Assembly (NCBI GenBank): GCA_043798445.1
Contig: JAZDOQ010000016.1
Span: 1-59,369 of the forward strand
Source of the DNA: Candidatus Gottesmanbacteria bacterium
Lineage (GTDB): Bacteria > Patescibacteriota > Microgenomatia > UBA10105 > UBA927
Reading direction: 5' to 3'
DNA length: 59,369 nucleotides
Shown here piece by piece: positions 1 through 59,369 of this stretch. Numbering within the stretch: position 1 is the first letter of the stretch; the number at the start of each line of letters is the position of its first letter. Both the position numbers and the translations under genes were made by a program. Below the pieces are notes generated by a model, which worked only from the letters and a program-made list of their open reading frames with translations, was not told where the DNA came from and searched no databases.

Positions 1-780
1 GGACAATTTTTATCCAACATTAGGGACGTATATTTTCGTTTATTCGCCCGTCTTATCATGCGTATTCCAGATAAAGGAATGTTAGGAAATTTGACGCCGA
101 AAATTCAGGATATATGGACTACATGGTCGTGGTTTCTTGCAATTTGTTCCGGAATCGTACTTGTTATACGTACGCTGAAAGCATGGAATGCACGTATCTT
201 TGTTATATTCCTTGTTTGGCTGATCGTACCGCTTTTCTTTTTTGGAGTCTACAAAAAGTCTATCTATGATTATTATTTTGGTATCTTTTTTCCATTACCA
301 TTTTTCTTAACCGCTCTGTTTATTGATAGCGTAATGAAGATAAAAAAAATAGGTATGGTTATTGGTGGTGCTGTTGTTATTGCTCTTGCTGTATGGAATT
401 GGCAAGGCAGACCGTTTATTTACGAACCAAACCATCAATTAGGACAAGTTGAAAGAATATCACAGGAGATTGTCAATCATGCGGATGATAAACCATTCAA
501 TTTTGCCCTCATCACTGGTGGAAATTCTGATCATGCGTATCGCTACTTTTTTGAAATATGGAATAAAAAACCCGTTGTTATCGAAAATGCAGTTGTCGAT
601 CCGGAGAGAAAAACCGTAACGGGTCAACTCCTGATTGTTTGTGAAGACATTTTTTGTCAGCCGCTTGGAAACTCGTTGTGGGAGGTTGCCGGTTTTGGAA
701 GAGCAGAAATAGCTGGTGTTTGGGACATCTCTGTTGTTAAAATATATAAGCTCACTCATTATGTGGAGCCAACACCATGA
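1..780 (+). CDS. C-terminal part of a polytopic membrane protein whose 5' end lies upstream of the window. Putative GT-C-type glycosyltransferase of the same unnamed family as 38597..40093 and 44199..45677.
   Basis: Frame 1 is open from nt 1, with no stop before the ATG at 58. Hydrophobic helices (WSWFLAICSGIVLVI, IFVIFLVWLIVPLFFF, FFPLPFFLTALFI, VIGGAVVIALAVW) are followed by a soluble tail of about 130 aa, as in the two paralogues. ATGA overlap with the next gene. Confidence 0.6.
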   Translation, partial: GQFLSNIRDVYFRLFARLIMRIPDKGMLGNLTPKIQDIWTTWSWFLAICSGIVLVIRTLKAWNARIFVIFLVWLIVPLFFFGVYKKSIYDYYFGIFFPLPFFLTALFIDSVMKIKKIGMVIGGAVVIALAVWNWQGRPFIYEPNHQLGQVERISQEIVNHADDKPFNFALITGGNSDHAYRYFFEIWNKKPVVIENAVVDPERKTVTGQLLIVCEDIFCQPLGNSLWEVAGFGRAEIAGVWDISVVKIYKLTHYVEPTP

Positions 781-1535
781 CACAACCCTTTTTATCAGTC
801 GTCATTCCTGCGTATAACGAAGAAACAAATATCCGATTGGGTGCGTTTGAAAAAGTTGCCCGATATCTTGACAGTCAAGCATATACATGGGAAGTGATTA
901 TTGTTGATGATGGATCATCCGATAGAACAGGAATGTTGACAGAAGAATTTATTGAGCATAATAATCATTTCTCCCTTGTGAAAAATCCGCATCAGGGAAA
1001 GGCAGCAACCGTGATGACCGGCATGATGAAGGCGTGTGGAGAAATTGTCCTGTTTAGTGATCTTGATCAGGCAACACCCTTAAAAGAAGTAGAAAAAATA
1101 TTGCCTTGGTTTGAAAAAGGCTGTGATGTTGTCATTGGATCAAGAAAAGGAAAACGGGAAGGAGCGCCTCTCCTTCGAAGATTTATGGCACGGGGATTTA
1201 TGATACTTCGAACAGTTGTTTTGGGACTGAGGGGGATTTCTGACACTCAATGTGGTTTTAAGGCGTTTAGACAACAAGTAGCACGGGATATTTTTCAGCA
1301 TTTGTCATTATACGGAAAACAAAAAATAGTGAGCGGTGCCATGGTGACGGCCGGATTTGATATAGAAGTGTTATTTTTGGCAAAAATGCTTGGATATAAA
1401 ATTAAAGAAATTCCGGTTGAATGGCATTATGTGGAAACGCGGAGAGTCAATCCGATTAAAGACTCATGGGAAGGACTCATGGATATTGTACATATTCGAA
1501 TAAATGCATGGAAAGGCGTTTATCGGAAAGGGTAA
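777..1535 (+). CDS. GT2 glycosyltransferase, DPM1/ALG5-like polyprenyl-phosphate hexosyltransferase
   Basis: GT-A motifs VVIPAYNEE, VDDGSSD, DLDQAT and DTQCGFKAF. About 250 aa with no TM helix, the layout of polyprenyl-phosphate sugar synthases. Confidence 0.75.
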   Translation: MTQPFLSVVIPAYNEETNIRLGAFEKVARYLDSQAYTWEVIIVDDGSSDRTGMLTEEFIEHNNHFSLVKNPHQGKAATVMTGMMKACGEIVLFSDLDQATPLKEVEKILPWFEKGCDVVIGSRKGKREGAPLLRRFMARGFMILRTVVLGLRGISDTQCGFKAFRQQVARDIFQHLSLYGKQKIVSGAMVTAGFDIEVLFLAKMLGYKIKEIPVEWHYVETRRVNPIKDSWEGLMDIVHIRINAWKGVYRKG

Positions 1536-1541
1536 TGAGAT

Positions 1542-2711
1542 ATGAATACGCGGTATACGCTTTTTGGGCGCATTCTTGCTATTTGTTATGGCCTTGCTTC
1601 TGTATTACTTTTTGTATATTCCTACACACAGGTTGATTTAGGATTAACGCTCACTTCGGTAAGTATTTGGCAGTCAATCCAAAAGTGGTTTCAACACATT
1701 GGGTATTTTAATCGGCCGTTATCAACGGGTATATATTTGGGAATTCTTGCCGTATTTTTTTCCCTGTACATTGTTACGATTATTGCAATTCATAAAAAAA
1801 GATTGACAAGTAAAGATTTGTGGCTGATTATCGGGACTGTTGTTGTCGGCACGGTTTTGTCGTATCCGGCATTTTCCTACGATTTATTTAATCACATGTT
1901 TACGGCAAAAACTGTGCTTATTTATCACAAAAATCCGTATGAAGTAATACCGCTTCAATTTGCAGGTGTTGATCCGTGGTTGGCATTCATGCATTGGACA
2001 CACGTGAGAAGTATATACAGCCCTTTGTGGATACTCGCAACACTGCCACCGTATTTTTTTGGCTTTGGGTATTTACTTTTAATTATGTGGAACTTCAAAG
2101 TTTTGCTGGCTGCCTCGTATATTCTTGCCGTATGGGCAATTGGAAAAATACTGGAGCTAGATCGATCTGAAAAACGTTTATTTGGGATGGCGGTGTTCGC
2201 TCTTAATCCACTCGTCATTATTGAGTCTTTAGTAAGTGCGCATAACGATATATTAATGATGGCGCTAGCAGTGTTGGCTATCTATCTGTTTAGCAAAAAA
2301 GGGAAAATCGCTTCATTATTTGTTCTTTCGCTTTCTATTGCGACAAAATTAATGACTATATGTCTTCTTCCGGTATGGCTTTTGGGATGGAAACGATGGA
2401 TGGCGTTTCTTGCAATGTGTGTCGGATTGTTCGCATTTTTGACGCAGCGTGAAATCATGTCATGGTACTTCCTTTGGATTTTACCGTTTGTTGCTTTACT
2501 TCCGGACATACAGATATTGACGGTTATTTCTGGTGGTGTCTCTTTAGGTTTATTGCTTCGTTACGCACCATTTCTTTATTACGGTCATTGGAATGATCCT
2601 GTGCCTGCGATGAAGCTTTGGACGACCTATGTTCCTATAGCTGTGTCCATCGTACTATCGCTTATTCTTTATCTTTTAAAGCGTAAAAAGGCAACTCATC
2701 AGTTTTCGTAA
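1542..2711 (+). CDS. Polytopic membrane protein, putative GT-C glycosyltransferase (DUF2029/PimE- or Gpi18-like)
   Basis: About 10 hydrophobic helices. Loop motifs FSYDLFNHMFTAK..NPY..YSPLW and SAHNDILMMALAVLAIYLF. Clear paralogue of 43060..44202. Family assignment is from memory of the motifs only. Confidence 0.55.
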   Translation: MNTRYTLFGRILAICYGLASVLLFVYSYTQVDLGLTLTSVSIWQSIQKWFQHIGYFNRPLSTGIYLGILAVFFSLYIVTIIAIHKKRLTSKDLWLIIGTVVVGTVLSYPAFSYDLFNHMFTAKTVLIYHKNPYEVIPLQFAGVDPWLAFMHWTHVRSIYSPLWILATLPPYFFGFGYLLLIMWNFKVLLAASYILAVWAIGKILELDRSEKRLFGMAVFALNPLVIIESLVSAHNDILMMALAVLAIYLFSKKGKIASLFVLSLSIATKLMTICLLPVWLLGWKRWMAFLAMCVGLFAFLTQREIMSWYFLWILPFVALLPDIQILTVISGGVSLGLLLRYAPFLYYGHWNDPVPAMKLWTTYVPIAVSIVLSLILYLLKRKKATHQFS

Positions 2712-2744
2712 ACCCATTTGTTTGATAGGGTTTGTTCCGCTATA

Positions 2745-4259
2745 ATGAATCTCATGGTGATCCGTAAACTTGCCAGAAGTCCTATAGTGTGGTTATTAAT
2801 AGTACTTGGTATATACATAATCTCCAGATTCATAAACCTTACAGCGCTTCCAATCTTCACAGATGAAGCTATTTATATCAGATGGTCTCAAATTGGAAGT
2901 AATGATGCCGGATGGCGGTTTATTTCCTTAACCGACGGTAAGCAGCCATTTTTTACATGGCTTATGATGGCTTCATTGCGATTATTTACGGATCCTTTAT
3001 TTGCTGGACGGTTTGTATCAGTGATCGCTGGAGTGTTTAGCACGATAGGTTTATATATATTAAGCAAAGAATTATTTCATAAAAAATATATCGGTTTGAT
3101 CGCAAGTATTCTGTACGTGTTGTCGCCATTTGCGTATATGTATGATCGTTTAGCAATTTATGATGCATGGGTCGCAACATTTTCGATTTGGAATTTGTAT
3201 CTTGCTATACTTCTCGTTCGAAAAATGCGGCTTGATGTTGCTCTTATTTTTGGTCTGACGCTCGGGGTGGGAATGCTCAATAAAACTTCAGCGTTCTTAA
3301 GTTTATACTTATTGCCGGCAACAATTGTTTTATTTGACTTTAAACAAAACAAGAAGATACAGAAAATAATAAAATGGGCAGGATTGTGCGTGCTCGCTGC
3401 TTTGATGTCACAGATTGTCTACAGCATTCTTCGATTATCGCCATTTTTCTATATAATCTCCCAGAAGGATGCGCTTTTCGTATATCCATTAAGGGAATGG
3501 ATTATTCACCCATTCACCTTCTTTCAGGGGAATCTTCATGGACTATTTGATTGGCTTATTAATTATTTAACGTGGCCAATGTGTGTTGTGGTAATTGCTT
3601 CGTTACTTTTTCCAAAGAAACAATATTTAGAAAAATTATTGCTTATTATGTGGTGGTTAGCTCCATTTACAGCACTTGCGTTATTTGGTCGTGTGTTATA
3701 CCCCAGATTTATTTTTTTTATGACCATGCCGTTATTAGTGTTAGCTGCTAATTTTATTGATTGGTGTGTGACATCAGTGCGACCGGTATTTCTTAAATGG
3801 GTCATAATTGTTGCGTGCTGTTTGCCTTCCGCCATATTGTCTTACCAAATGATGACCGATATTAAAACAGCACCCATACCAGTATCAGAAAGAGGACAGT
3901 ATGTCAGTGATTGGCCATCAGGATGGGGAACAAATGAAGTCGTGGCGTTTTTAAAAGAAGAGTCTCGTAATAAACCAATTGCGGTATATACAGAAGGAAC
4001 ATTCGGTTTATTTCCATATGCGCTTGAGATTTATCTTTGGGAAAACAAAAATGTCGAGATTTTTGGTCTCTGGCCACTTGAAAAAACATTGCCGGATGCA
4101 ATGAGAAAAAGTGTTCTTGAGAAAGACACCTATTTTGTTTCAAACTTTACGCAAAGCAAAATAGATTGGCCGCTTCAATTCATCGCAGAATATCAAAAGG
4201 GGACAAACCAACAAACACATATGCGTTTGTACAAGGTTGAGCTCCCGAAAGAACAATAA
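2745..4259 (+). CDS. GT-C glycosyltransferase, ArnT/PMT_2 (GT39/GT83)-like
   Basis: First-loop acidic motif IFTDEAIYIRW, multi-TM N-terminal region and a soluble C-terminal domain of about 110 aa. Start is uncertain: TTG 2718, ATG 2745 or ATG 2754. Confidence 0.7.
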   Translation: MNLMVIRKLARSPIVWLLIVLGIYIISRFINLTALPIFTDEAIYIRWSQIGSNDAGWRFISLTDGKQPFFTWLMMASLRLFTDPLFAGRFVSVIAGVFSTIGLYILSKELFHKKYIGLIASILYVLSPFAYMYDRLAIYDAWVATFSIWNLYLAILLVRKMRLDVALIFGLTLGVGMLNKTSAFLSLYLLPATIVLFDFKQNKKIQKIIKWAGLCVLAALMSQIVYSILRLSPFFYIISQKDALFVYPLREWIIHPFTFFQGNLHGLFDWLINYLTWPMCVVVIASLLFPKKQYLEKLLLIMWWLAPFTALALFGRVLYPRFIFFMTMPLLVLAANFIDWCVTSVRPVFLKWVIIVACCLPSAILSYQMMTDIKTAPIPVSERGQYVSDWPSGWGTNEVVAFLKEESRNKPIAVYTEGTFGLFPYALEIYLWENKNVEIFGLWPLEKTLPDAMRKSVLEKDTYFVSNFTQSKIDWPLQFIAEYQKGTNQQTHMRLYKVELPKEQ

Positions 4260-4266
4260 GACTTCT

Positions 4267-5820
4267 ATGGAGAAAAAAACCATACATGTAATTGGTTGGA
4301 CTCTATTACTTGTTATCCTTGGTTTTATCGTACTTTTGCCTATCTTAAAACCGGGATTCTTGATTACTGATGATGGAAATTGGATGGTAATTCGATTATC
4401 CGCGTTTTATCAAAGTTTACGGGAAGGACAATTTCCAGTTCGATTCTTGGGAAGACTGAATCAAAGCTACGGATACCCGGTTGCTAATTTTCTCTATCCA
4501 GGGTTCTTATATATCGGCAGCCTCCTTCATATTATTGGATTTTCTTTCTCTACATCAGTCGAAGTCATTCAAATAGGATCCATACTCATTGGGGCAATCG
4601 CCCTGTTTTTCTGGTTAAAGCATTTTTTTAGTACAAACGCAAGTGGAATTGGTGCGATATCCTTTTTGTTTATGCCCTATGTTCTTTATGATGTGTTCAA
4701 ACGGGGGTCTGTAGGCGAAGTATTATCAATTGGAATGAGCACGGTGGTTTTATATGCGATTGAGTCGAAGCGTCATTGGTTACTCAGTCCTGCCGTTGCG
4801 CTTCTTGCCATTAGTCATAACACCCTTGCATTGTTTTTTTTGCCGATATTTGGGGCATATATCTTATTGAAAAAATATTGGACACTCATACCGTCATTTA
4901 TTATCGGTGTCGGAATGTCCTTGTTTTTTTGGCTGCCTGTATTTTTTGAACGAAATGTTGTGCTTTTTAATAATGTTGTTATTTCTCATCCAGGAGATTT
5001 TTTTCCAGTGAGCAACAAGTTAATTTTATACAGTGTTCCATTTCTTATCGCTGCTGGTGTTTCACTCGTTTCAAAAACAAAGAAATACAAAAAAGAACAA
5101 TGGTTCTTTCTTGCACTACTCGGCATGGGATTATTTTTCGCAACCAGAGCAAGCGGATTTTTATGGCGGATTCCTGACTTCGTTAAATTTGTTCAGTTTC
5201 CATATCGGTGGTTAGCATTATGGGTGTTTGCGGGTCCATGGCTTATCGCTCGTTTAGTAAACGATGGGAAAAAAGTGACGCATCGAGTAGTAACCGCAAT
5301 ATTTATTTGCACGTTTGTTGTGTTGTGGATTCCATATTTAAAATCAGATAGTGTTATTCAAAACGAGGGTTTTTTTACGACCAATGAGGGAACAACAACA
5401 GTGGCTGATGAATATATGCCTAAATGGGCAAGTAAAAAAATGGATACCCGAGCGAATAAAAGAGTCGAGTTTTATTCAGGCGCTGGGGATATACGCACAA
5501 TAAAAGTAACAACCCAGACGGTTAACGTTGAACTAGTGGTTACAGAACCAAGCATTTTACAGATTAATACGTTGTATTATCCCGGTTGGGGAGCAATGTT
5601 AGATAATATAAAGGTTCCTATTATTCATGACAATTCTTATGGACTTATGCGAGTTAACGTTCCTGCAGGAACACATCATTTGTTGGTTGAGTTTCGAGAA
5701 ACAGTAAGCAGATTTATGGCAGACGGGTTAAGTGTAGCATTTGGCGTTTTGTATTTTATTGCTCTTATTGCATCGTTTGTAGTTTTGAAGAAAAAGAAAG
5801 TGAATAAACAAAAGAAATAA
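4267..5820 (+). CDS. Polytopic membrane protein of the PTPS-related / COG5617 family, putative GT-C-like glycosyltransferase
   Basis: Motifs TDDGNW, LREGQFPVRF, SYGYPVANFLYPGF and FVQFPYRWL. C-terminal LYYPGWGAMLD..VPAGTHHLLVEF, then a terminal TM and a Lys-rich tail. ATG 4267 is preferred over TTG 4237, which overlaps the upstream gene. Confidence 0.65.
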   Translation: MEKKTIHVIGWTLLLVILGFIVLLPILKPGFLITDDGNWMVIRLSAFYQSLREGQFPVRFLGRLNQSYGYPVANFLYPGFLYIGSLLHIIGFSFSTSVEVIQIGSILIGAIALFFWLKHFFSTNASGIGAISFLFMPYVLYDVFKRGSVGEVLSIGMSTVVLYAIESKRHWLLSPAVALLAISHNTLALFFLPIFGAYILLKKYWTLIPSFIIGVGMSLFFWLPVFFERNVVLFNNVVISHPGDFFPVSNKLILYSVPFLIAAGVSLVSKTKKYKKEQWFFLALLGMGLFFATRASGFLWRIPDFVKFVQFPYRWLALWVFAGPWLIARLVNDGKKVTHRVVTAIFICTFVVLWIPYLKSDSVIQNEGFFTTNEGTTTVADEYMPKWASKKMDTRANKRVEFYSGAGDIRTIKVTTQTVNVELVVTEPSILQINTLYYPGWGAMLDNIKVPIIHDNSYGLMRVNVPAGTHHLLVEFRETVSRFMADGLSVAFGVLYFIALIASFVVLKKKKVNKQKK

Positions 5821-7503: not shown

Positions 7504-8230
7504 TATCGTTATTCCTGTTTACAATGAAGAAGCGGAACTCGAAAGCCATACAGAGACGCTGATAGGATTTCTTAAGTCATATCTTACTGATTTTGATTGG
7601 ATGATTACTATTGCAAATAATGCTTCAACGGATGAAACGCTTACCATTGCCCGTCGGTTAGCAAAAAAATACCAGAGCGTGCACGTTCTTCACTTGGATC
7701 AAAAAGGCAGAGGACGAGCAGTAAAAAGAGCATGGCTTGAAACAAAAGCGGACGTCCACTGTTATATGGATGTTGATTTATCAACGGATCTTAAACACCT
7801 TCCCCCACTTGTCAGGTCACTGCTTCGAGGATATGACATTGCTATTGGATCACGGAATGCGAAGAACTCGAGAGTGTATGGAAGAAGCCCTCTTCGGACA
7901 CTTACCTCGAAAACGTATATTACCCTCATTAAACTTGTCTTTTGGGTGAAATTTGGCGATGCGCAATGCGGATTTAAGGCAATCACTGATGAAGCAGCAC
8001 AAGCACTTTTGCCGCATGTTGTTGATAACGCATGGTTTTTTGATTCGGAACTTCTGATTATTGCAGAGAAACTTGGGTACCGGATTTATGAAGAGCCCGT
8101 GACATGGATAGATAATCCCGGATCAACGGTGCGGGTAATTAAAACTGCTCAAGGGGATATCGAAGGATTGAAGCGATTATTTACCACTAAACCATGGAAA
8201 AAACTGCCTGCACGGTATGGAAGAAATTGA
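7475..8230 (+). CDS. GT2 glycosyltransferase, DPM1/ALG5-like polyprenyl-phosphate hexosyltransferase
   Basis: Motifs NIVIPVYNEE, NNASTDET, DVDLSTD and DAQCGFKAI. About 250 aa, soluble. Confidence 0.75.
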   Translation: MSMEKKPTLNIVIPVYNEEAELESHTETLIGFLKSYLTDFDWMITIANNASTDETLTIARRLAKKYQSVHVLHLDQKGRGRAVKRAWLETKADVHCYMDVDLSTDLKHLPPLVRSLLRGYDIAIGSRNAKNSRVYGRSPLRTLTSKTYITLIKLVFWVKFGDAQCGFKAITDEAAQALLPHVVDNAWFFDSELLIIAEKLGYRIYEEPVTWIDNPGSTVRVIKTAQGDIEGLKRLFTTKPWKKLPARYGRN

Positions 8231-38595: not shown

Positions 38596-38596
38596 T

Positions 38597-43058: not shown

Positions 43059-43059
43059 T

Positions 43060-45677: not shown

Positions 45678-45701
45678 TATGACTTGTTTTTTGTGATGCA
45701 T

Positions 45702-49068: not shown

Positions 49069-49070
49069 TC

Positions 49071-52235: not shown

Positions 52236-52456
52236 AGATATGGCTTCTTTTAGCGCCTTGTGTATACGGAGATAGTATCGGCTTGATTGCTTCCGACATC
52301 TACACAATTATTCCAACAGTTGTCATTGGATTTCGTATTGTTCAAAACGAAAACTTTTTACTCCAATGTTTTTTTGCACTCTATTTTGCGCAAAAATATA
52401 TTCAAGCACATAACACATCACTCCTGCCTGACAATCTAGACGATTGTTGCGTATAA
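52232..52456 (+). CDS. Hypothetical small protein (74 aa), doubtful
   Basis: The ATG forms an ATGA overlap with the upstream stop, as many real genes here do. Two weakly hydrophobic stretches and no recognisable motif. It fills most of the only large gap in the locus. Confidence 0.25.
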   Translation: MKIWLLLAPCVYGDSIGLIASDIYTIIPTVVIGFRIVQNENFLLQCFFALYFAQKYIQAHNTSLLPDNLDDCCV

Positions 52457-52503
52457 CGAACAATAACGGTACTATACGCGTTATTCATCAATTTAAATCA
52501 AAT

Positions 52504-53616
52504 ATGCGCATTTTAATTTTTAATTGGCGGGATATTCGTCACGACTGGGCGGGTGGTGGTGAGGTATATGTGCACGAGTTAGCTAAACGTTGGGTTAGGT
52601 TTGGGAATACAGTTACCTTATTTTGTGGACAAAACGTTGGAAAAAAACTTCCGGAAAGAGAAAAAATAGACGGGATTTTAATTCTCCGTCATGGTGGACG
52701 CTTCTCTGTTTATTTTTGGGCAATTTTTTATTATTTCAAGGAATTAAGAAATCACACAGATATCGTTGTTGATGTACAAAATGGAATACCTTTTTTTACC
52801 CCACTATTCAGCTTTAAACCAAAATTAGCCGTGGTCTACCATGTTCATGGTAAACAGTTTTTTATAGAATTACCTTTTCCAATAAACCTTATTGGGTATT
52901 TGGTGGAAAAATACGTGTTTCCTTTTTTATACGGAAGAATTGCTATACAGGCAATTTCTAAAAATACGAAAAGTGATTTAATTCATCTCGGACTACCTGC
53001 AAAAAATATTACTATTATCTATTGTGGTATGAATGGTCATGCAAAAAAGCTTATCACCATTCATAAATTTTCAAATCCAACAGTTTTATACTTAGGAAGA
53101 ATAAAAAAATATAAGAGGGTTGACTCGTTAGTTGCTGTTATGCAAAACGTCATTAGAGTCAAACCTAAAACGAAGCTAATTATCGCAGGTTGGGGAACAG
53201 AAGCATCTTCAGTTGTTAATTCGGCTATGATGAGTTCAATACGAAAACATATTCATATACTTGGTCCTGTTTCTGAATCAGAGAAAAAACAATTGCTTGC
53301 AAAATCGTGGGTTTTTGTTAATCCCTCGATTAATGAAGGGTGGGGAATTTCTGTTATTGAAGCTAATCTTTATGGAACGCCTGCGATTGCATATCGTGTT
53401 CAAGGTCTTCGCGAGTCAATTCGTCATGGAAAAACAGGTTTATTAGTAAAGGATGAAAAAAGTTTTTCTGATGCTATAATTACGTTGTTATCAAATACAA
53501 CTTTGCGAAATTCAATGGGGAAACGTGCAAAACTTTGGGCAGCAAAATTTAATTGGGATAAAGCATCGAAAAAAAGTTTACGTTTACTTGATTCTCTATA
53601 TCGAAGACACAAGTGA
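52504..53616 (+). CDS. GT4 (GT-B fold) glycosyltransferase
   Basis: ATG 52504 (MRILIFNWRDIRHDWAGGGE) parallels the N-terminus of 51120..52235. Motif EGWGISVIEANLYGTPAIAY. Confidence 0.8.
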   Translation: MRILIFNWRDIRHDWAGGGEVYVHELAKRWVRFGNTVTLFCGQNVGKKLPEREKIDGILILRHGGRFSVYFWAIFYYFKELRNHTDIVVDVQNGIPFFTPLFSFKPKLAVVYHVHGKQFFIELPFPINLIGYLVEKYVFPFLYGRIAIQAISKNTKSDLIHLGLPAKNITIIYCGMNGHAKKLITIHKFSNPTVLYLGRIKKYKRVDSLVAVMQNVIRVKPKTKLIIAGWGTEASSVVNSAMMSSIRKHIHILGPVSESEKKQLLAKSWVFVNPSINEGWGISVIEANLYGTPAIAYRVQGLRESIRHGKTGLLVKDEKSFSDAIITLLSNTTLRNSMGKRAKLWAAKFNWDKASKKSLRLLDSLYRRHK

Positions 53617-54485
53617 TATCAGAAAATACTGATATCATAAATTGTATGTTTGGATCAATATATTCAAATCATCTAGATTATTTAAAGAAATCATTTCGAG
53701 GGATGAATAAGGAATATCATAAGAAAGACAAGAATAAAGCCTCATTCGTCATGGATAAGCTTCAGCAGGCATATATAAAGATTTTTGGCATTCCAGAAAT
53801 AGGTTTTCAAATGAGATATTTTCATTTTAAAAAAACACTCGATATGTGTGGTGAAAAAAACTTGAATAGGATTCTTGACGCAGGGTGTGGAATCGGATGT
53901 TACACAGTTGCCCTTGCTCGTCAATTTAAAAATAGTGCCGTTGTTGGTGTTGATAATTCAAAGAGGAATGTACATATAGGGAAAACACTAGCTCGAGAAT
54001 TAAGATTATCTAATATAGTTTTTAAAACTGGTGATATTTCAAAAAGGACGCTTGAAAGGAAAAAATACGATTTTATTATTTGTATTGACGTGTTGGAGCA
54101 CATTGAGGAGTATCAAAGGGTTCTGAAGAATTTTTATCAAATGCTGAGACCAGGAGGGTATTTGTATATTCATGTACCGCAGATGCACCAAAAGCGTTTC
54201 TTTAAACGGTTCCAAACTTGGAGTCATGAAGGACATGTGAGAGAAGGATTTGTTCCGTCTATTTTTGATAGAGATTTGAAAAAAATCGGATTTCATAAAA
54301 TACGCGTATGGAATACATTTGGAACGATGGGAAGCATTGCATGGGAATTGAATCATCTGGCTTTGTCAAAAAGTTTTGTAATGACTGCATTAATTTATCC
54401 CCTTCTACTTCCGTTAGTCTTTCTTGATCGATTTATAATGAACAGAAAGGGATTAGCTGCGGCGTACCTATACAAAAAGATATGA
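53613..54485 (+). CDS. Class I SAM-dependent methyltransferase
   Basis: Motif I ILDAGCGIGCYTVALA, then DVLEHIEEY and LRPGGYLYIHVP. GTG 53613 overlaps the upstream TGA. An internal ATG is a possible alternative start. Confidence 0.75.
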   Translation: MISENTDIINCMFGSIYSNHLDYLKKSFRGMNKEYHKKDKNKASFVMDKLQQAYIKIFGIPEIGFQMRYFHFKKTLDMCGEKNLNRILDAGCGIGCYTVALARQFKNSAVVGVDNSKRNVHIGKTLARELRLSNIVFKTGDISKRTLERKKYDFIICIDVLEHIEEYQRVLKNFYQMLRPGGYLYIHVPQMHQKRFFKRFQTWSHEGHVREGFVPSIFDRDLKKIGFHKIRVWNTFGTMGSIAWELNHLALSKSFVMTALIYPLLLPLVFLDRFIMNRKGLAAAYLYKKI

Positions 54486-55504
54486 AAAGAAAAATATATC
54501 CAACAATCTCAATATTGACGATTACATACAATCCAAATCCGGCAGTTTTTACTCGTTCACTTGAGTCTATAAAAAAACAACACTATCCAAAAAACAAACT
54601 CGAACATATTATTGTCGATGGGGGGTCTAGAGAGTTAACGATACTTCTTGCAAAAAGGTATGGCTGCACAGTTATAATTCGGAAAGACCTTCGCGATCAA
54701 AGTGAAGCAAGACGGTCATACGCGGTAAAAAAAGCAAAGAATGAAATCATATTATGGTTAGAATCAGATAATATACTTGAGGATACAAATTCACTTTCTG
54801 AACTTGTTCAACCTTTCATAGATGATCCAAAAATCATCTCATCCTTTCCGCTTCACTATGGATATAACAAACATGGATCGATACTTGATCGGTACAGTGC
54901 TTTATTTGGAGGGTGTGATCCAGTAGTCCTTTATTTGAAAAAAACTGATAGAGAACCTTGGTATTCACAAAAATATTCAAAAGGGAAACTTATACGAAAG
55001 AAAAAGGCATATGAAGTGATTCAATTTGATGAGTCTACACTTCCGACGGTCGGGGATAACGGATTTCTGACACGCAGGTCGGTTCTACTTCAAGCTCATA
55101 TACGCCCTGAACAGTATGTGCATATCGATATATATATCGATTTATTGAAACTTGGATACAATCGCTTTGCAGTTGTTCATTCAACGTCAATAGAACACAT
55201 TATTGGAAATAGCCTTATACAACTTCTTCAAAAAAGAATGGTTTACGCGAAACGATTTTCATTATCACCCCATTTTAAGAATAGAAGATATTTTGTATAT
55301 AACAGCAATAGTATAAAAGATAAGGCGCGTTTACTTTTATTTGTGTTTTATAGTTTTACGTTTATACAACCGGTTTGGTTGTCGATTCGTGGATATATGA
55401 TGATCCGAGATCTGTCCTGGTTTTTGCATCCGATTGCTAGCTTTCTTTTTATGCTCTATTATATGAGAACAACATTGCTGTCTATAAATAAAACCAGCAA
55501 ATGA
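54482..55504 (+). CDS. GT2 glycosyltransferase with C-terminal membrane helices
   Basis: Motifs ISILTITYNP and IVDGGS, with ESDN in place of DxD. Two hydrophobic helices near the C-terminus (LLLFVFYSFTFIQPVWL, FLHPIASFLFMLYY). ATGA overlap. Confidence 0.7.
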   Translation: MKRKIYPTISILTITYNPNPAVFTRSLESIKKQHYPKNKLEHIIVDGGSRELTILLAKRYGCTVIIRKDLRDQSEARRSYAVKKAKNEIILWLESDNILEDTNSLSELVQPFIDDPKIISSFPLHYGYNKHGSILDRYSALFGGCDPVVLYLKKTDREPWYSQKYSKGKLIRKKKAYEVIQFDESTLPTVGDNGFLTRRSVLLQAHIRPEQYVHIDIYIDLLKLGYNRFAVVHSTSIEHIIGNSLIQLLQKRMVYAKRFSLSPHFKNRRYFVYNSNSIKDKARLLLFVFYSFTFIQPVWLSIRGYMMIRDLSWFLHPIASFLFMLYYMRTTLLSINKTSK

Positions 55505-55508
55505 AAAT

Positions 55509-56288
55509 ATGAAAACAGTCATTCTCTGCGGTGGGATAGGATATCGTCTTAAAGAAGAAACTGAATTTAAACCAAAACCAATGGTGCTAGTCGGAGGAAA
55601 ACCCATTCTTTGGCATATTATGAAAATGTATAGCCATTATGGGTTTAATGACTTTATCATCGCACTTGGATATAAAGGGAACCTTATCAAAGAATACTTT
55701 TTGAATCAGAAATATTTTTCACATGATTTTTCCTTATCTACGAAGTCTGGTGTGACTTCTATACATAAGAATAGAATAAGTGGAATTGCCGATGATTTTT
55801 ATATTACATTTGTTGATACAGGGGAATCTACATTACCAGGAGAACGAATTCTTCGAATGAAAAACTATATACCGGAAAGTGACAGGAATTTTATGGTTAC
55901 GTATGGTGATGGAGTATCTGATCTTAACATAGCAAAACTTGTTGCCTTTCATAAAAAGCAAAATACCATTGGTACGGTGACAGGGGTTCATCCTCGAAGC
56001 AAATACGGCCTTCTCTCTGTCAACGAACGCCACATCGTGCATTCATTCACAGAGAAGCCAGTTCTTGTGGATTGGGTGAATGGTGGATTTATGGTGTTTA
56101 AACGGAAAGCACTTAATTATTTCAAAGAAAATGAAATGGAGCATGAAGGATTGAAGCGTTTGATTGGTGAAAAACAACTTTCCTTATATATTCACGATAA
56201 GTTTTGGTTTGCCGTGGATACATATAAAGAACTGGAAGATCTCAATACAATGTGGACAAAACAGGAGTCTCCTTGGAAACTATGGTAA
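55509..56288 (+). CDS. rfbF: Glucose-1-phosphate cytidylyltransferase
   Basis: Characteristic N-terminus MKTVILCGGIGYRLKEETEFKPKPMVLVGGKPILWHIMKMYSHYGFNDFIIALGYKG, with length and C-terminal DTYKE..W motif typical of RfbF. Confidence 0.85.
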   Translation: MKTVILCGGIGYRLKEETEFKPKPMVLVGGKPILWHIMKMYSHYGFNDFIIALGYKGNLIKEYFLNQKYFSHDFSLSTKSGVTSIHKNRISGIADDFYITFVDTGESTLPGERILRMKNYIPESDRNFMVTYGDGVSDLNIAKLVAFHKKQNTIGTVTGVHPRSKYGLLSVNERHIVHSFTEKPVLVDWVNGGFMVFKRKALNYFKENEMEHEGLKRLIGEKQLSLYIHDKFWFAVDTYKELEDLNTMWTKQESPWKLW

Positions 56289-57235
56289 AACAAACGGTTG
56301 TTGTCACCGGTGGCGCCGGATTTATCGGGGGTCATCTCGTAGAACTTCTTTTGCAAAAAAAGTACAAAGTCATTGTTATTGATATTCAAAAACGTTGTAA
56401 ATCATACTTCTTTCTTAATAAATTGGATAAAAAGGTTGTCTATAAACGAGTAGATATACGAAAACAAAAGCAGGTAGAACGTTTTTTTGGATCGGTCCAC
56501 CCGGCGTATGTTATTCATCTTGCTGCACAGCCCATCGTTCAGGACGCGTATGATCGTCCGTACGATGTGTTTGATACGAATATTATGGGAACAGTAAACA
56601 TATTAGAGGCTTGCCGAAGAGACAAAAAGATAAAAAGAATTCTTGTTGCTTCCTCTGATAAAGCATACGGAAAAACAAAAAAGACCTATACAGAAAGCTC
56701 GCCGCTTCAAGGTGATCATCCATATGATGTGTCGAAATCCTGTGAGGATTTGATAGCCTACACGTACTTTAAAACATACAATTTGCCCGTTGTTATCACA
56801 AGATTCGGAAATGTGTACGGTGAAGGAGATGTACATTTTGATAGGTTAGTTCCGGGAATATGTGAATCTTTGATAACTAAGAAACCGTTTCAAATTCGAA
56901 GTGATGGAACCTATGTACGTGATTATATATATGTGAATGATGTAGCCGCTGGATATATGACACTTCTTGCAACAAAAAGAGATATTGAAGGAGAAGCGTT
57001 TAATTTTTCCTCAGATGATACGTATTCGGTGTTGAAATTAATCAAACAGGCGGAATTGTCATTGCATGTAAAGATCCCTTACGAGATAAAAAATACTGCA
57101 AAAAACGAAATTCCATATCAACATTTGAACGATACAAAAATTAGATTATTAGGGTGGAGAGGAAGGATGAAATTTGATAAGGTTTTTCCGAAAATTTTTA
57201 CATGGTATCTTAAAAATATTAGTAATGGTGGCTAA
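56282..57235 (+). CDS. rfbG: CDP-glucose 4,6-dehydratase-like extended SDR
   Basis: Motifs VTGGAGFIGGHLV and SSDKAYG, with catalytic PYDVSK (YxxxK). Lies immediately after rfbF with a 7-nt overlap. Assignment as CDP- rather than dTDP-specific rests on the SDKxY motif and context. Confidence 0.6.
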   Translation: MVKQTVVVTGGAGFIGGHLVELLLQKKYKVIVIDIQKRCKSYFFLNKLDKKVVYKRVDIRKQKQVERFFGSVHPAYVIHLAAQPIVQDAYDRPYDVFDTNIMGTVNILEACRRDKKIKRILVASSDKAYGKTKKTYTESSPLQGDHPYDVSKSCEDLIAYTYFKTYNLPVVITRFGNVYGEGDVHFDRLVPGICESLITKKPFQIRSDGTYVRDYIYVNDVAAGYMTLLATKRDIEGEAFNFSSDDTYSVLKLIKQAELSLHVKIPYEIKNTAKNEIPYQHLNDTKIRLLGWRGRMKFDKVFPKIFTWYLKNISNGG

Positions 57236-57256
57236 TCCTCATTACATATATGATAT

Positions 57257-59077
57257 ATGGAAAAAATTAAACTTTCAGACTACATAGTAAAATTTATTGA
57301 GGGAATTGGAGTAAAGCACATTTTTCTAATACCAGGAGGTGGAAATATCCATATCATTGATTCTATTGGAAATAGCAAGCGTATCAAGTATGTCTGTAAC
57401 TATCACGAGCAGGCCTGCGCAACGGGAGCGGAATCATACGCGCGGATAACAGGAAACATCGGGGTTTGTGTTGTTACAACCGGTCCTGGAAGCACGAATG
57501 CAATCACTGGAATGCTCGGCGGGTGGTTAGATTCGATTCCCATGCTGATCATCTCAGGACAGGTGAAGAGAGAACTTCTAGGGAGTGGTAAAGGAATGAG
57601 ACAGCTGGGAGATCAGGAAATAAATATCGTAGATATCGTTAAACCCATAGCAAAATACGCAGTGACCATCATGGATCCAAATGAGATTCGTTATCATCTG
57701 GAAAAAGCCGTGTTTTTGGCAAAAACTGGAAGACCGGGACCTGTATGGTTAGACATACCGCTTGATATTCAAGGATCGTATATCGATCCAAAAGAGCTTT
57801 CATCCTTTGACGAAAGCAAAATAAACGCTGTGGGGAGTGATAGAAAACTTTTGAGGAAACAGGTGACTCTTACGCTTGAAAAATTGAGAAAATCAAAAAG
57901 ACCCGTGCTTTACGCAGGGAACGGCATACGGCTTTCAGGTGGAGCAAAAGAATTTCTTACATTGGTGGACATGCTAAACATTCCCGTACTCACAAGTTAC
58001 GCAGGATATGATCTCATCCCTTCTTCACATCCATGCTTTTTAGGACGTGGACACGCATTCGGTCAAAGAGCGGCTAATTTTATTCTTCAAAATAGTGATG
58101 TTTTTCTTTCCATCGGAGCACGTTTGGACATCAGAACGATTGGGTTTACCTATAAGGCTTTCGCAAGAGGGGCGTATAAAGTAATGGTCGATATTGATAA
58201 GAGTGAGCTGGATAAATTTATCCTTTCGCTGGATCTTAAAGTTAACGTTGATGCAAAGGAATTTATAGAAGAGATGATAAGACAATTGAAGAAGCGACCT
58301 TTAAAAATACATATCACGGATTGGTTTACATATGGAAGAAATCTAAACAGTGCATATCCAGTGGTGTCAAAAGAGTACTGGAAGGATAAGGAATTCGTCA
58401 ATCCGTATTGTTTCATTGAGACAATCGGAAAATATCTTGCGAAGAATGAACTGATAGTCCTATCGGACGGTGTTGGTTCGTTAAATTGTATGTACCAGGC
58501 GTTCTACGTCAAATCCGGGCAACGGATAATCCTGAATAACGGGAGCGCACAGATGGGCTATGGTCTTCCTGCAGCAATCGGTGTAGCGTTTGCTTCAGAT
58601 AATAAAAAGAGGGTGATCTGTCTTGAAGGGGATGGTAGTTTACAGCTGAATATCCACGAGCTGCAGACTATGAAGTATTATAACCTTCCAATTAAGCTTT
58701 TTATTTTTAGTAATGACGGATATCTTTCAATCAGAAATACACAAAATAATTTGTTCGGCGGAAGACATGTTGCCGTTGATTCAAGGTCTGGGGTAAGTGC
58801 ACCGGATTTTGTTAAAGTCGCCAAAGCGTATGGATTTAAGGCGATACGTATCAATAATCATCAGGATATGGAAAAGAAAATACGAGAGGTTTTGAAAGAA
58901 CCAGGTCCAATCGTCTGTGATATCCATGCGGTAAGGAATTTGATGCTCACCCCAAAACTGACCACCAGAGGGCTTCCGAACGGTCAGTTTGAATCGCCGC
59001 CACTTGAGGATATGGGACCGTTTCTTCCACGAGACGAATTTAAAAAAAACATGATTATTCCGTTATGGAAAGGATAA
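57257..59077 (+). CDS. Thiamine-diphosphate-dependent enzyme of the acetolactate-synthase large-subunit family (YerE-like candidate)
   Basis: N-terminal pyrimidine-binding motif TTGPGSTNAITG and C-terminal ThDP motif LEGDGSLQLNIHELQT. 606 aa. Confidence 0.75.
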   Translation: MEKIKLSDYIVKFIEGIGVKHIFLIPGGGNIHIIDSIGNSKRIKYVCNYHEQACATGAESYARITGNIGVCVVTTGPGSTNAITGMLGGWLDSIPMLIISGQVKRELLGSGKGMRQLGDQEINIVDIVKPIAKYAVTIMDPNEIRYHLEKAVFLAKTGRPGPVWLDIPLDIQGSYIDPKELSSFDESKINAVGSDRKLLRKQVTLTLEKLRKSKRPVLYAGNGIRLSGGAKEFLTLVDMLNIPVLTSYAGYDLIPSSHPCFLGRGHAFGQRAANFILQNSDVFLSIGARLDIRTIGFTYKAFARGAYKVMVDIDKSELDKFILSLDLKVNVDAKEFIEEMIRQLKKRPLKIHITDWFTYGRNLNSAYPVVSKEYWKDKEFVNPYCFIETIGKYLAKNELIVLSDGVGSLNCMYQAFYVKSGQRIILNNGSAQMGYGLPAAIGVAFASDNKKRVICLEGDGSLQLNIHELQTMKYYNLPIKLFIFSNDGYLSIRNTQNNLFGGRHVAVDSRSGVSAPDFVKVAKAYGFKAIRINNHQDMEKKIREVLKEPGPIVCDIHAVRNLMLTPKLTTRGLPNGQFESPPLEDMGPFLPRDEFKKNMIIPLWKG

Positions 59078-59078
59078 T

Positions 59079-59369
59079 ATGAATATTCTTTTGACGGGTT
59101 CAAACGGTTTTATCGGTAGCAATATTGCAACACACCTAAAAGGAAAACATACGTTGTTTACTCCAGGCCATAGGGAATTAGACCTGCTTGATGAGGAAGC
59201 AGTGCTAGTATTTTTCAAGAGCCACGCAATCGATCTTGTTATCCATTGTGCATTGGTCGGGGGAAGCAGAAAAGAAGAATATATCCACAGCATGTTTTAC
59301 GATAACATGCGTATGTTTTTTAATATTGTCAGGTGTAAGAAATATTTTCGTAGAATGATCAATATCGGT
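59079..59369 (+). CDS. NAD(P)-dependent sugar epimerase/reductase (SDR), N-terminal fragment truncated by the window end
   Basis: ATG 59079 lies 1 nt after the upstream stop. Rossmann motif MNILLTGSNGFIGSNI. The frame is open to nt 59369. Confidence 0.7.
   Translation, partial: MNILLTGSNGFIGSNIATHLKGKHTLFTPGHRELDLLDEEAVLVFFKSHAIDLVIHCALVGGSRKEEYIHSMFYDNMRMFFNIVRCKKYFRRMINIG

Follow-up and report, generated by a model that had tools for sequence, protein, structure and literature searches.

A conserved Gottesmanbacteria-like locus that probably encodes a hugely expanded transmembrane glycosylation system

The window, which is the whole contig of 59,369 bp, is probably part of a locus for a cell-surface glycoconjugate that is conserved within its clade and specific to it. 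The organism is an ultra-small, uncultured CPR bacterium of the Microgenomates group of Patescibacteria and is Gottesmanbacteria-like. The locus would represent a transmembrane glycosylation system that has many components and is hugely expanded. Polytopic GT-C candidates numbered 23 (11 PMT_2-type, five PTPS_related, four YfhO, two GT87/MptA_B and one DUF6311) and covered 38,641 bases or 65.1% of the window, in agreement with an earlier note that had put them at about 38 kb and two thirds. No published description of such a locus was found in the literature.

The gene map contained 44 open reading frames plus one partial frame at the right end (Table 1). The total was thus 45 genes and not the 46 of the earlier note, whereas its 23 GT-C genes were recovered together with 10 GT2 (PF00535) and four GT4-type (PF00534/PF13439) cytoplasmic glycosyltransferases identified with Pfam. 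The coding density was 99.4%, and the widest gap between genes was 208 bp. The locus was truncated at both ends, as had been proposed. The frame of g01, listed as 58-780, stayed open as far back as base 1 and is therefore also truncated, g45 was partial, and in relatives the locus extended further left than this contig. Pfam searches of the window found no initiating phosphoglycosyltransferase, Wzy polymerase, O-antigen-type ligase or LCP ligase.

Table 1. Genes of the window with predicted products, coordinates, strand and supporting matches
Gene	Product	Position	Strand	Evidence
g01	PMT_2-type GT-C, C-terminal half, cut by contig end	1..780	+	64% identity to residues 255-516 of 518-aa PMT_2 protein, closest relative L083
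g02	GT2, polyprenyl-phosphate sugar synthase type (DPMS/ArnC/GtrB-like), no TM helices	777..1535	+	PF00535; best NCBIfam PgfS, ArnC, Dol-P hexose transferase, all sub-cutoff; best PDB DPMS 5mlz, ArnC, GtrB
g03	GT87/MptA_B-family GT-C, ~11 TM	1542..2711	+	PF09594 31.6 bits (cutoff 25); precomputed PF09594 + PF26314
g04	PMT_2 GT-C	2718..4259	+	PF13231 63.6 bits; 'TDE' motif after TM1
g05	PTPS_related-group GT-C	4237..5820	+	own Pfam E=0.077; full-length paralogue of g28, E 4e-62; group HMM 669 bits
g06	PTPS_related GT-C	5827..7503	+	PF10131 41 bits
g07	GT2, DPMS/ArnC-like, directly upstream of Wzx gene	7475..8230	+	PF00535; NCBIfam PgfS, Dol-P hexose transferase, ArnC
g08	Wzx/MOP-type flippase	8217..9662	+	PF13440 187.9 bits; NCBIfam MOP flippase, O-glycosylation flippase, sub-cutoff
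g09	GT2	9664..10584	+	PF00535
g10	GT2, similar to rhamnosyltransferase/MftF	10574..11503	+	PF00535, PF13641; NCBIfam
g11	GT2	11481..12227	+	PF00535
g12	YfhO GT-C	12125..14542	+	PF09586 109.4 bits
g13	GT4 (GT-B)	14539..15582	+	PF00534 102.7 bits
g14	YfhO GT-C	15579..17816	+	PF09586 42.5 bits
g15	GT2	17820..18734	+	PF00535
g16	Divergent PMT_2-related GT-C	18741..20282	+	no own Pfam match; homologues with PF13231/PF02366 (50-60% identity); hhalign to PMT_2 group 88%
g17	PMT_2 GT-C	20284..21885	+	PF13231 60.2 bits
g18	PMT_2 GT-C	21888..23612	-	PF13231 32 bits
g19	YfhO GT-C	23643..26162	+	PF09586 107.5 bits
g20	PMT_2-group GT-C	26165..27913	-	PF13231 22.5 bits, sub-cutoff; paralogue of g18, E 2e-99
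g21	PMT_2-group GT-C	27923..29611	-	PF13231 24.9 bits, sub-cutoff; paralogue of g17, E 6e-80
g22	YfhO GT-C	29608..31938	-	PF09586 96.4 bits
g23	PTPS_related GT-C	31935..33593	-	PF10131 53.4 bits
g24	DUF6311-type GT-C	33556..35349	-	homologues with PF19830; AF2 fold GT-C
g25	PMT/PMT_2 GT-C	35243..36964	+	PF13231 46 bits, PF02366 41.6 bits
g26	PMT_2 GT-C	36967..38595	+	PF13231 53.6 bits
g27	Divergent PMT_2-like GT-C	38567..40093	+	PF13231 18.8 bits, sub-cutoff; paralogue of g32, E 4e-30
g28	PTPS_related GT-C	40115..41767	+	PF10131 59.1, PF09586 33.5, PF13231 28.3 bits, each above cutoff; AF2 model
g29	GT2	41749..42525	+	PF00535
g30	Single-TM DUF5667 protein	42363..43058	+	PF18915 26.5 bits, just sub-cutoff; orthologues at same position in relatives' loci
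g31	GT87/MptA_B-like GT-C	43024..44202	+	no own Pfam match; paralogue of g03, E 7e-43; L082 orthologue matches PF26314
g32	PMT_2/PMT GT-C	44130..45677	+	PF13231 36.1 bits, PF02366 24 bits
g33	PTPS_related-group GT-C	45684..47324	+	YfhO C-terminal match 21.4 bits, sub-threshold; full-length paralogue of g06, E 2e-70
g34	GT4	47330..48385	+	PF00534 111 bits
g35	GT2, DPMS/AglJ/ArnC-like, directly upstream of Wzx-like gene	48382..49068	+	PF00535 125 bits; NCBIfam AglJ 108.8, ArnC 75 bits, both sub-cutoff; PDB DPMS 5mlz E 3e-22, then ArnC, GtrB
g36	Divergent Wzx-like flippase, ~12 TM	49065..50330	+	PF13440 39 bits, PF01943 33.5 bits
g37	GT2, ArnC/PgfS/PpgS-like	50327..51118	+	PF00535; NCBIfam pattern
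g38	GT4	51120..52235	+	PF00534 134.9 bits
g39	GT4	52444..53616	+	PF00534 122.7 bits
g40	SAM-dependent methyltransferase	53613..54485	+	PF13847, PF08241, related models
g41	GT2	54482..55504	+	PF00535 54.3 bits
g42	Glucose-1-phosphate cytidylyltransferase-like	55509..56288	+	TIGR02623 270.5 bits (cutoff 300); PF00483
g43	NDP-hexose 4,6-dehydratase, best match CDP-glucose type	56252..57235	+	TIGR02622 180 bits (cutoff 278); PF01370, PF16363
g44	Acetolactate-synthase-like ThDP enzyme, sugar-nucleotide context	57257..59077	+	PF02775, PF02776, PF00205; TIGR00118 392.8 bits (cutoff 538)
g45	Epimerase/reductase (RmlD-like), N-terminal 97 aa, cut by contig end	59079..59369	+	PF01370, PF04321

Based on sequence relationships and two fold models, all 23 polytopic genes are assigned to the GT-C type and not to transporters. 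Pfam gathering scores were passed by 14 of them (four YfhO, six PMT_2/PMT, three PTPS_related and one GT87). Another four gave sub-threshold matches (g20, g21 and g27 to PMT_2, g33 to the YfhO C-terminus), and these four, together with g05 and g31, aligned over their full length with paralogues that did pass (BLASTP E 4e-30 to 2e-99). The remaining three, g01, g16 and g24, were placed via homologues or fold. Its family groups were largely reproduced, with four YfhO, five PTPS-related, six plus two PMT_2-like and two GT87-like genes, but its unnamed family of three and its one orphan did not form one family and instead were the PMT_2-related g01, g04 and g16 and the DUF6311-type g24. PTPS_related belongs to the Pfam GT-C clan CL0111 (PMC7801869). 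Profile-profile comparison linked the GT-C groups at 80-99% probability, and a conserved Asp or Glu right after TM1 was kept in every group, within a 'DE' loop-1 motif in the 11 PMT_2/PMT genes and among the near-invariant D26, G28, W31, D32 and E33 in g16.

The AF2 model of g24 (pLDDT 90.6) was compared to the PDB with Foldseek, and the top 26 matches were all GT-C, the best being STT3 (E 7e-9, TM 0.57). Its significant structural matches were to GT-C enzymes only (STT3, DPY19, AglB, PglB, ALG12 and ArnT), and hhalign placed it with the YfhO group at 98.7%; the WWDxG motif was absent from g24. The g28 model was of moderate quality (pLDDT 72, pTM 0.81), built from a 6-sequence alignment, and its 36 top PDB matches were likewise all GT-C (AglB, STT3, AftD, ArnT, AftB and PglB). 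A transporter identity was considered and rejected, as no such assignment fitted, while the Pfam clan families, the links between groups and both models pointed to GT-C.

Four GT2 proteins (g02, g07, g35 and g37) had polyprenyl-phosphate glycosyltransferases (DPMS 5mlz, ArnC and GtrB) as their best matches, although all NCBIfam matches of these DPMS-like proteins were under equivalog cutoffs and, in contrast to GtrB and ArnC, they lacked membrane helices. Three of the four flanked the two flippases, in the adjacent GT2/Wzx sets g07-g08 and g35-g36-g37. In the closest relative a GT2+GtrA_DPMS_TM fusion gene adjoined the locus. With four candidate donor synthases, or five including that fused gene, against 23 GT-C enzymes, many of the latter would share donors or some would use other substrates.

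The nearest labelled relatives of the locus were Candidatus Gottesmanbacteria (CPR) and homologues also carried Patescibacteria-group names, which bears out the earlier conjecture of a CPR host. A search for syntenic loci showed that g01-g31 were collinear with a 408-kb relative contig at 49-86% amino-acid identity and that collinearity of the core extended to a 1.0-Mb contig (39-72%). If the latter (1.006 Mb) approximates one genome, the locus would make up ~6% of it. Genes for dTDP-rhamnose and UDP-glucuronate were also present in relatives. The GT-C density is not due to chance. In ~20-kb neighbourhoods of g16 homologues, the GT-C share was 63-83% in the nearest relatives (loci with enough flank), compared to mostly 7-30% in ~70 loci from other phyla; these usually had one or two GT-C genes and at most four. 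The 23 of the window exceed by a wide margin what ordinary surface-sugar loci carry.

The core was conserved among relatives, and the variable part consisted of PMT_2/PTPS genes. An orthologue of g20 was absent in both relatives compared, those of g21, g23 and g27 were also absent in the more distant one, and extra PMT_2 genes occurred at four other positions. This gain and loss is equally compatible with an invariable assembly line and with decoration steps that are optional. A possible but rather doubtful alternative is that the GT-C enzymes are largely independent decorators, each attaching a single optional side-chain sugar to a wall polymer or a small number of them without any ordered chain, comparable to gtr serotype-conversion modules and Lactococcus csdAB/CD/EF. 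Such a toolbox would diversify the surface for host-bacterium recognition or phage evasion. The very uneven divergence of orthologues, from 49% to 86%, is in line with it, and the known Gram-positive YfhO and PMT_2 enzymes decorate teichoic acids and wall polysaccharides (PMC8035078). However, a core of ~20 genes kept its order and orientation down to ~50% identity, and the donor synthases are far fewer than the GT-C enzymes. Furthermore, paralogues within the locus were only 24-40% identical and shared no long DNA repeats, so the duplications are old and the copies have been kept. Repeats, invertible segments and mobile-element genes, any of which could drive switching, were absent from the locus.

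It is less probable, and on the whole unlikely, that most of the PMT_2/PMT-type enzymes are protein O-glycosyltransferases, each specialised for different target proteins that are secreted or lie at the surface (pilins, S-layer, adhesins), with the remaining GT-C enzymes extending protein-linked glycans; the models for this are the single Pmt of actinobacteria and the eukaryotic PMT, TMTC and TMEM260. The 'DE' motif of the PMT_2/PMT group would suit this role, and the folds of g24 and g28 were nearest to the protein-modifying STT3, DPY19, AglB and PglB. PF13231 also takes in transferases that act on lipid A or teichoic acids, ArnT and GtlB among them, and thus membership in the PMT_2 family does not fix the acceptor. 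Pfam and motif searches found no MIR domain or WWDxG motif, and the window held no candidate glycoprotein gene besides the small DUF5667 protein g30. Patescibacteria are considered to rely on attaching to the surface of a host cell (PMC11665869), which is in line with this reading. For the GT87/MptA_B and YfhO enzymes studied to date, however, the known acceptors are glycans or teichoic acids rather than proteins (PMC8035078).

It is very improbable that many of the 23 proteins are not active glycosyltransferases but transporters, scaffolds or decaying duplicates: nine scored below Pfam gathering on their own, single-sequence and profile searches found no solved relative by sequence, and some orthologues look split (g12 in L001, a PMT_2 gene in three pieces in L003), yet all 22 complete GT-C genes were intact and full length, were conserved as orthologues in relatives and retained the loop-1 acidic residue, and transporters matched the GT-C folds of the g24 and g28 models only at TM ~0.1.

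We therefore favour an expanded transmembrane glycosylation system, the steps of which are suggested by family membership. Enzymes of the locus would supply nucleotide sugars, here by a CDP-hexose branch, and soluble GT2 and GT4 enzymes would build a lipid-linked oligosaccharide on the cytoplasmic face. The four DPMS/ArnC/GtrB-like GT2 proteins may load single sugars onto polyprenyl phosphate, and the two Wzx-type flippases may move lipid-linked sugars to the outer face. There, the 23 GT-C enzymes, each with its own linkage or acceptor specificity, would pass sugars from their lipid carriers to the growing glycan, which would thus gain most of its structural complexity outside the membrane. 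We infer the donors and the direction of transfer, that the enzymes act in series and not in parallel, and the acceptor, which may be a wall polymer, a lipoglycan or a surface protein. The extracytoplasmic assembly or decoration of a glycoconjugate proposed earlier held in those parts that sequence can test, namely the GT-C families, donor-type GT2 proteins and Wzx flippases. Mycobacterial lipomannan, lipoarabinomannan and arabinogalactan are likewise assembled with most of their complexity added outside the membrane.

The window, a complete contig of 59,369 bp with a G+C content of about 38%, held 44 ORFs and one partial ORF at the right end (numbered g01 to g45 from left to right), which in the ORF listing covered 99.4% of the bases with a largest gap of 208 bp. 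The earlier note had counted 46 genes, a number that we correct to 45; its statement that the locus is truncated at both ends holds, since the first ORF is also cut, as its reading frame stays open to base 1. Thirty-seven genes were assigned to glycosyltransferases and 23 of these to the GT-C type, the same numbers as given in the note: a Pfam scan of all window ORFs found 10 GT2 and 4 GT4-type genes, and the GT-C genes were recognized by Pfam, paralogy, homologues or structure. The GT-C genes occupied 38,641 bases, or 65.1% of the window, in agreement with the previous estimate of about 38 kb or two thirds. The Pfam scan also found two genes for Wzx-type flippases (Polysacc_synt_3) and one gene each for a SAM methyltransferase, a nucleotidyltransferase, a 4,6-dehydratase-type SDR, an acetolactate-synthase-like ThDP enzyme, a partial epimerase/reductase and a DUF5667 protein. 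There were no tRNA genes and no matches to Rfam families in the window.

Positions of individual features in the window and in the loci of relatives (L numbers)
Feature	Sequence	Position	Strand	Observation
g01	window	1-780		truncated at the left end
g16, divergent PMT_2-related gene	window	18741-20282	+	
Space between divergent genes g18 and g19	window	23613-23642		30 bp
g24, DUF6311-like gene	window	33556-35349	-	
Overlap of divergent genes g24 and g25	window	35243-35349		maximal ORFs overlap
DUF5667 protein	window	42363-43058		small, single TM; between a GT2 gene and an MptA_B-like gene
Right-end module	window	55509-59369		glucose-1-phosphate cytidylyltransferase-like gene, 4,6-dehydratase, acetolactate-synthase-like ThDP enzyme
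Last ORF	window	59079-59369		partial
DUF5667 protein	L082	1053-1595		position kept
DUF5667 protein	L165	2272-2691		position kept
DUF5667 protein	L084	11494-12078		near the ThDP-enzyme module
ThDP gene and continuation	L084	1-14491		
Left extension of the locus	L083 (Ga0376277_0000162, 26-35 kb)	1200-9971		rmlA, rmlC, rmlB, rmlD-like gene, UDP-glucose dehydrogenase, another epimerase, GT2+GtrA_DPMS_TM fusion, full-length PMT_2 gene whose C-terminal half corresponds to g01
Orthologue of g12	L001	3385-5703		split into 582 + 101 aa
PMT_2 gene	L003	11538-13138		three overlapping ORFs

HMM searches placed 14 of the 23 polytopic proteins above the Pfam gathering score of a GT-C family on their own, and the other nine were tied to GT-C through paralogy, Pfam matches of homologues, or structure. 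The YfhO cutoff (PF09586, 28.5 bits, for a match across the membrane module and the C-terminal helix) was passed by g12 (109.4 bits), g14 (42.5 bits), g19 (107.5 bits) and g22 (96.4 bits). The PMT_2/PMT cutoffs (PF13231, 26.1 bits; PF02366, 22.7 bits) were passed by g04, g17, g18, g25, g26 and g32, and g20, g21 and g27 scored under them. PTPS_related (PF10131, 26.4 bits), which Pfam lists in the GT-C clan CL0111 with unknown function (PMC7801869), was matched by g06, g23 and g28 and missed by g05 (E 0.077) and g33, both full-length paralogues of passing genes. For GT87 (PF09594, 25 bits), g03 passed with 31.6 bits and also carried a precomputed PF26314 match; g31 had no Pfam match of its own and was linked by its paralogy to g03 and by the PF26314 match of its orthologue. 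All-against-all BLASTP combined with group HMMs identified six genes beyond the passing ones as their full-length paralogues, pairing g20 with g18 (E 2e-99), g21 with g17 (E 6e-80), g33 with g06 (E 2e-70), g05 with g28 (E 4e-62), g31 with g03 (E 7e-43) and g27 with g32 (E 4e-30).

Three genes were assigned through their homologues and, for g24, also through a structure model. Although g16 itself lacked a Pfam match, proteins homologous to it (50-60% identity) bear PF13231/PF02366, and the alignment of the family showed a near-invariant D...WDE motif (D26, W31-D32-E33) right after the first helix. The truncated g01 shares 64% identity with residues 255-516 of the PMT_2 protein (518 aa) that the closest relative encodes at this position. 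No Pfam match was found for g24 itself even at E<=10, and roughly half of the homologues that are 40-58% identical to it carried PF19830 (DUF6311). NCBIfam offered no usable name for the unassigned membrane proteins. Crude hydropathy scans gave 8-15 helices for all 22 complete GT-C genes, compared with about 8-13 in the N-terminal membrane module of GT-C enzymes, and an acidic residue was conserved after TM1 in every GT-C group, in the presumed first extracytoplasmic loop. This residue lies in a 'DE' motif in the PMT_2 group ('TDE' in g04) and in 'SYDLFN' in the GT87 pair, and it is a conserved D in both the PTPS and YfhO groups and the invariant D36 in the g24 family.

PDB sequence searches with GT-C members and two family profiles gave no meaningful matches; only fold comparison was informative. 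Hhalign-type profile-profile comparisons connected, with the probabilities given in brackets, YfhO with the g24 family (98.7%) and with PTPS (98.3%), PTPS with the g24 family (96.9%) and with PMT_2 (95%), and PMT_2 with the g16 family (88%) and with the divergent PMT_2 pair (80%), and the GT87 pair was set apart from the other groups. Predicted structures covered two of the 23 GT-C proteins. The AlphaFold model of g24 (pLDDT 90.6, pTM 0.90, 39-sequence alignment) had GT-C enzymes as its best 26 PDB matches, with STT3 at the top (E 7e-9, TMq 0.57) and with DPY19, AglB, PglB, ALG12 and ArnT among them. The model of g28, from the PTPS_related group (pLDDT 72, pTM 0.81), likewise matched GT-C enzymes in all of its top 36, among them AglB, STT3, AftD, ArnT, AftB, PglB, EmbA/B and AftA. 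The significant matches of both models were thus confined to GT-C, the class to which the earlier note had assigned these proteins. Membership in a transporter family was rejected, as MFS, SLC and GPCR chains matched both models only at TM ~0.1 with a probability <0.25. We also rejected g24 as an STT3-type oligosaccharyltransferase: it lacks WWDxG and a Pfam STT3 match, and the likeness is at the level of the fold. Neither the WWD/WWDxG motif nor Pfam STT3 was found in any window protein.

Genes that could supply these enzymes lie beside them. Four GT2 genes, g02, g07, g35 and g37, formed one BLAST cluster and had no TM helices; their best NCBIfam matches were PgfS, ArnC, dolichyl-phosphate hexose transferase, AglJ and PpgS, all below the equivalog cutoffs. 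The two that were searched against the PDB, g35 and g02, gave Pyrococcus dolichol-phosphate mannose synthase, ArnC and GtrB as best matches. The Wzx gene g08 follows g07, and g35 is followed by the Wzx-like g36 and then g37. Pfam detected no GtrA-type flippase in the window; a GT2+GtrA_DPMS_TM fusion is found in the closest relative, just left of the position where the window starts. A soluble GT-A, a Wzx-type flippase and a GT-C make up a described variant of the Gram-positive multi-component transmembrane glycosylation systems (PMC8035078). Because such gene sets occur here, we propose a mechanism in which the DPMS-like GT2s would load sugars onto polyprenyl phosphate and the remaining GT2 and GT4 enzymes would make a lipid-linked oligosaccharide. 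Both kinds of lipid-linked sugar would then be flipped by the Wzx proteins, and the 23 GT-Cs would add sugars outside the membrane. The proposed use of polyprenyl-phosphate-linked donors at the outer face has indirect support from the DPMS/ArnC-like GT2 and Wzx genes in the locus. None of the window ORFs had a Pfam match to a priming phosphoglycosyltransferase, a Wzy-type polymerase or a ligase, and these may be encoded past the right end of the contig. Judged from the sequence, the extracytoplasmic glycosylation put forward in the earlier note is supported.

Given 23 enzymes from five families in a conserved order, we prefer the reading that the GT-Cs would assemble a complex glycan serially. 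The analogue would be the synthesis of LM/LAM/AG in mycobacteria, which has the GT87/MptA_B family in common with the locus. Less probably, the GT-Cs may decorate in parallel or carry out protein O-glycosylation.

At the right end, the window closes with a small set of sugar-nucleotide genes. In metagenome relatives (L084, L092 and L097), a conserved set of genes comes after the ThDP gene, encoding an epimerase/reductase, a transaldolase-like protein, an SDR, a 3-dehydroquinate-synthase-like protein and an HpcH/HpaI aldolase, and L084 has in addition an archaeal-type PEP carboxylase and a DegT aminotransferase. The metagenome scan with the ThDP enzyme did not recover the contig of the closest relative. 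Groundwater-type JGI samples and the 'Hain-H..' assemblies are the source of several related contigs. Together with the continuation in the metagenome relatives, the module resembles a pathway for an unusual CDP-sugar that is branched or of higher carbon number, with YerE-like branching as a possibility. The DUF5667 protein might assist the GT-Cs as an accessory factor or by binding their acceptor. The spacing of two divergent gene pairs, 30 bp apart or overlapping, implies that promoters lie within coding sequence or that transcription is organized otherwise; translation of g12, g25, g30 and g32 probably begins downstream of where their maximal ORFs start. GC skew was positive in all 2-kb bins (0.08-0.19), even across the 26-35 kb block with genes only on the minus strand, which argues for a strong compositional bias of the strands that is independent of the direction of transcription. 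For another Microgenomates genome, a marked strand disparity is reported (PMC7143001).

An exact match to window proteins was not on record in public assemblies, and genomic context was taken from homologues. A scan with the g16-family profile across one genome per GTDB species gave 79 loci, and GT-C genes were counted in ~20 kb around each g16 match with HMMs from the groups of the window. The nearest relatives with enough flank (L001-L006 and L008) had 5-12 GT-C ORFs that made up 63-83% of the DNA, and two short fragments from one more relative (L010 and L015) likewise consisted mostly of GT-C genes. The roughly 70 loci from other phyla, which include Brocadiia, Binatia, Deltaproteobacteria, Nitrospinota and DPANN archaea, mostly had 1-2 GT-C genes on 7-30% of the DNA. 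The maximum outside the close relatives was four, one such locus being in a Daviesbacteria genome (also Microgenomates). The best named match was a Candidatus Gottesmanbacteria MAG (L003, 59% identity), and homologues of g24 and g03 are named, for example, Candidatus Gottesmanbacteria and Patescibacteria group bacterium; the lineage in NCBI reads Patescibacteria group; Microgenomates group. Five TPA MAGs (L004, L005, L006, L008 and L010; CAYHEJ01, CAYLQG01, CAYWVJ01, CAZEVT01 and CAZQGM01) are titled 'uncultured Gammaproteobacteria bacterium', yet their loci show synteny with the Gottesmanbacteria-type super-locus (48-61% identity); the organism name in these titles is probably erroneous or a placeholder.

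The search for syntenic loci found collinear ones on two long JGI contigs. The 408-kb contig Ga0376277_0000162 was collinear with g01-g31 at 49-86% amino-acid identity, lacking g20 and having one additional PMT_2-like gene. The 1,006,061-bp contig Ga0373628_0000001 (43.8% G+C in the locus region) kept the order of a core consisting of g09-g19, g22, g24-g26 and g28-g31 at 39-72% identity; it lacked g20, g21, g23 and g27, and four other membrane-protein genes, three of them PMT_2-like, were inserted at separate places. The locus is therefore made up of a conserved core and a variable fringe. Should the 1.0-Mb contig approximate a whole genome, we infer that a locus of 60-70 kb would take up ~6% of it. 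Identity to Ga0376277_0000162 was very uneven, from 49% for g05, 51% for g06, 55% for g24 and 59% for g03 to 80-86% for g02, g15-g18, g23 and g26, which suggests allele replacement or differing selection on individual GT-Cs. On that contig the locus extends left of the window position, and a gene for a CAP-domain protein stands ahead of the cluster. The split orthologues in L001 and L003 are either pseudogenes or frameshift errors of the assemblies.

Paralogues within the window were just 24-40% identical, and long DNA repeats were absent. The expansion is thus ancient and maintained, and neither a recent amplification nor a switching cassette. Recombination, phase variation or a cassette mechanism was rejected since the only repeats are brief segments of coding sequence conserved between paralogues (at most 62-67 nt, 68-85% identity), and no long inverted repeats or recombinase genes were found in the window. 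Recent tandem amplification or an assembly artefact is contradicted by the paralogue divergence and by the recurrence of the gene order in independent assemblies.

To our knowledge, GT-Cs are the only glycosyltransferases that act on the outer face of the membrane, and a bacterium usually has a handful of them. That a minimal-genome organism has a conserved set of 23 implies a central role for an elaborate surface glycan in its biology. The CPR surface is the site of host-cell attachment, phage recognition and nutrient scavenging, and we know of almost nothing established about CPR envelope chemistry. No description of loci of this kind in CPR bacteria, Gottesmanbacteria or Microgenomates was found in the open-access literature, and a recent review of Patescibacteria biology does not mention glycosyltransferases or surface polysaccharides. 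We tentatively suggest, while regarding it as somewhat improbable in its full form, that in an ultra-small CPR lineage (~1 Mb) a single conserved locus, ~6% of the genome, encodes more than 20 GT-Cs from five families that work one after another outside the membrane on a large and complex envelope glycoconjugate. Such a pathway would have evolved independently as a counterpart to that for mycobacterial LAM/arabinogalactan or to the ALG pathway in the ER lumen. If so, this glycan could be the main surface structure for contact between episymbiont and host, and PTPS_related and DUF6311 would be given their first functions. The locus is a compact natural panel of five GT-C families beside likely donor synthases and flippases, and the substrates of PTPS_related and DUF6311 are for that reason directly testable by heterologous expression.

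Compared with known systems, the locus resembles Wzx/Wzy loci for O-antigen, capsule or S-layer glycan in its nucleotide-sugar genes, GT2/GT4 enzymes, methyltransferase and Wzx in a co-oriented cluster. In contrast to these, the window lacks a Wzy, chain-length regulator, ligase or initiating phosphoglycosyltransferase, and GT-C genes, which are rare or absent in Wzx/Wzy loci, make up two thirds of its DNA. Protein O-mannosyltransferases (GT39: PMT1/2 and actinobacterial Pmt) and ArnT (GT83) share the PMT_2/PMT matches, the loop-1 'DE' and the GT-C fold, but the sequences are too distant for a PDB sequence match and MIR domains are absent in the window. In the assembly of LM/LAM and arabinogalactan in mycobacteria and corynebacteria (PimE, MptA, MptB, MptC, Emb and Aft), as proposed for the window, many different GT-Cs build a complex envelope glycan outside the membrane from polyprenyl-phosphate sugars. 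The window shares the GT87/MptA_B family (g03 and g31) with that assembly, and the fold matches of g28 include AftD, AftB, AftA and EmbA/B. However, the Emb/Aft-type family (Arabinose_trans) has no Pfam match in the window, and the dominant YfhO, PTPS_related and PMT_2 are not mycobacterial families. Mycobacterial GT-C genes are scattered over a genome of ~4.4 Mb, whereas here they form one locus in a tiny genome. In roles and protein families, the window corresponds to the Gram-positive three-component systems (CsbB/GtcA/YfhO, GtlA/GtlB, GacI-J-K-L and CsdAB/CD/EF; PMC8035078), which have in common with it a polyprenyl-phosphate-sugar-synthase-like GT2, a flippase and a YfhO or PMT_2 GT-C with an acidic loop after TM1; a Wzx-type flippase role has been proposed for GacK (PMC8035078). 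In those systems each module includes a single GT-C and a genome has one to three modules, as opposed to 23 GT-Cs from five families in 59 kb, with only four candidate donor synthases and no GtrA-type flippase in the window, in a CPR host of ~1 Mb. The components are thus of familiar kinds (YfhO, PMT_2, GT87, Wzx and DPMS-like GT2), and the locus departs from the known systems in its scale (23 GT-Cs versus 1-3), its clustering in one locus, its inclusion of two uncharacterized GT-C families (PTPS_related and DUF6311) and its minimal-genome host.
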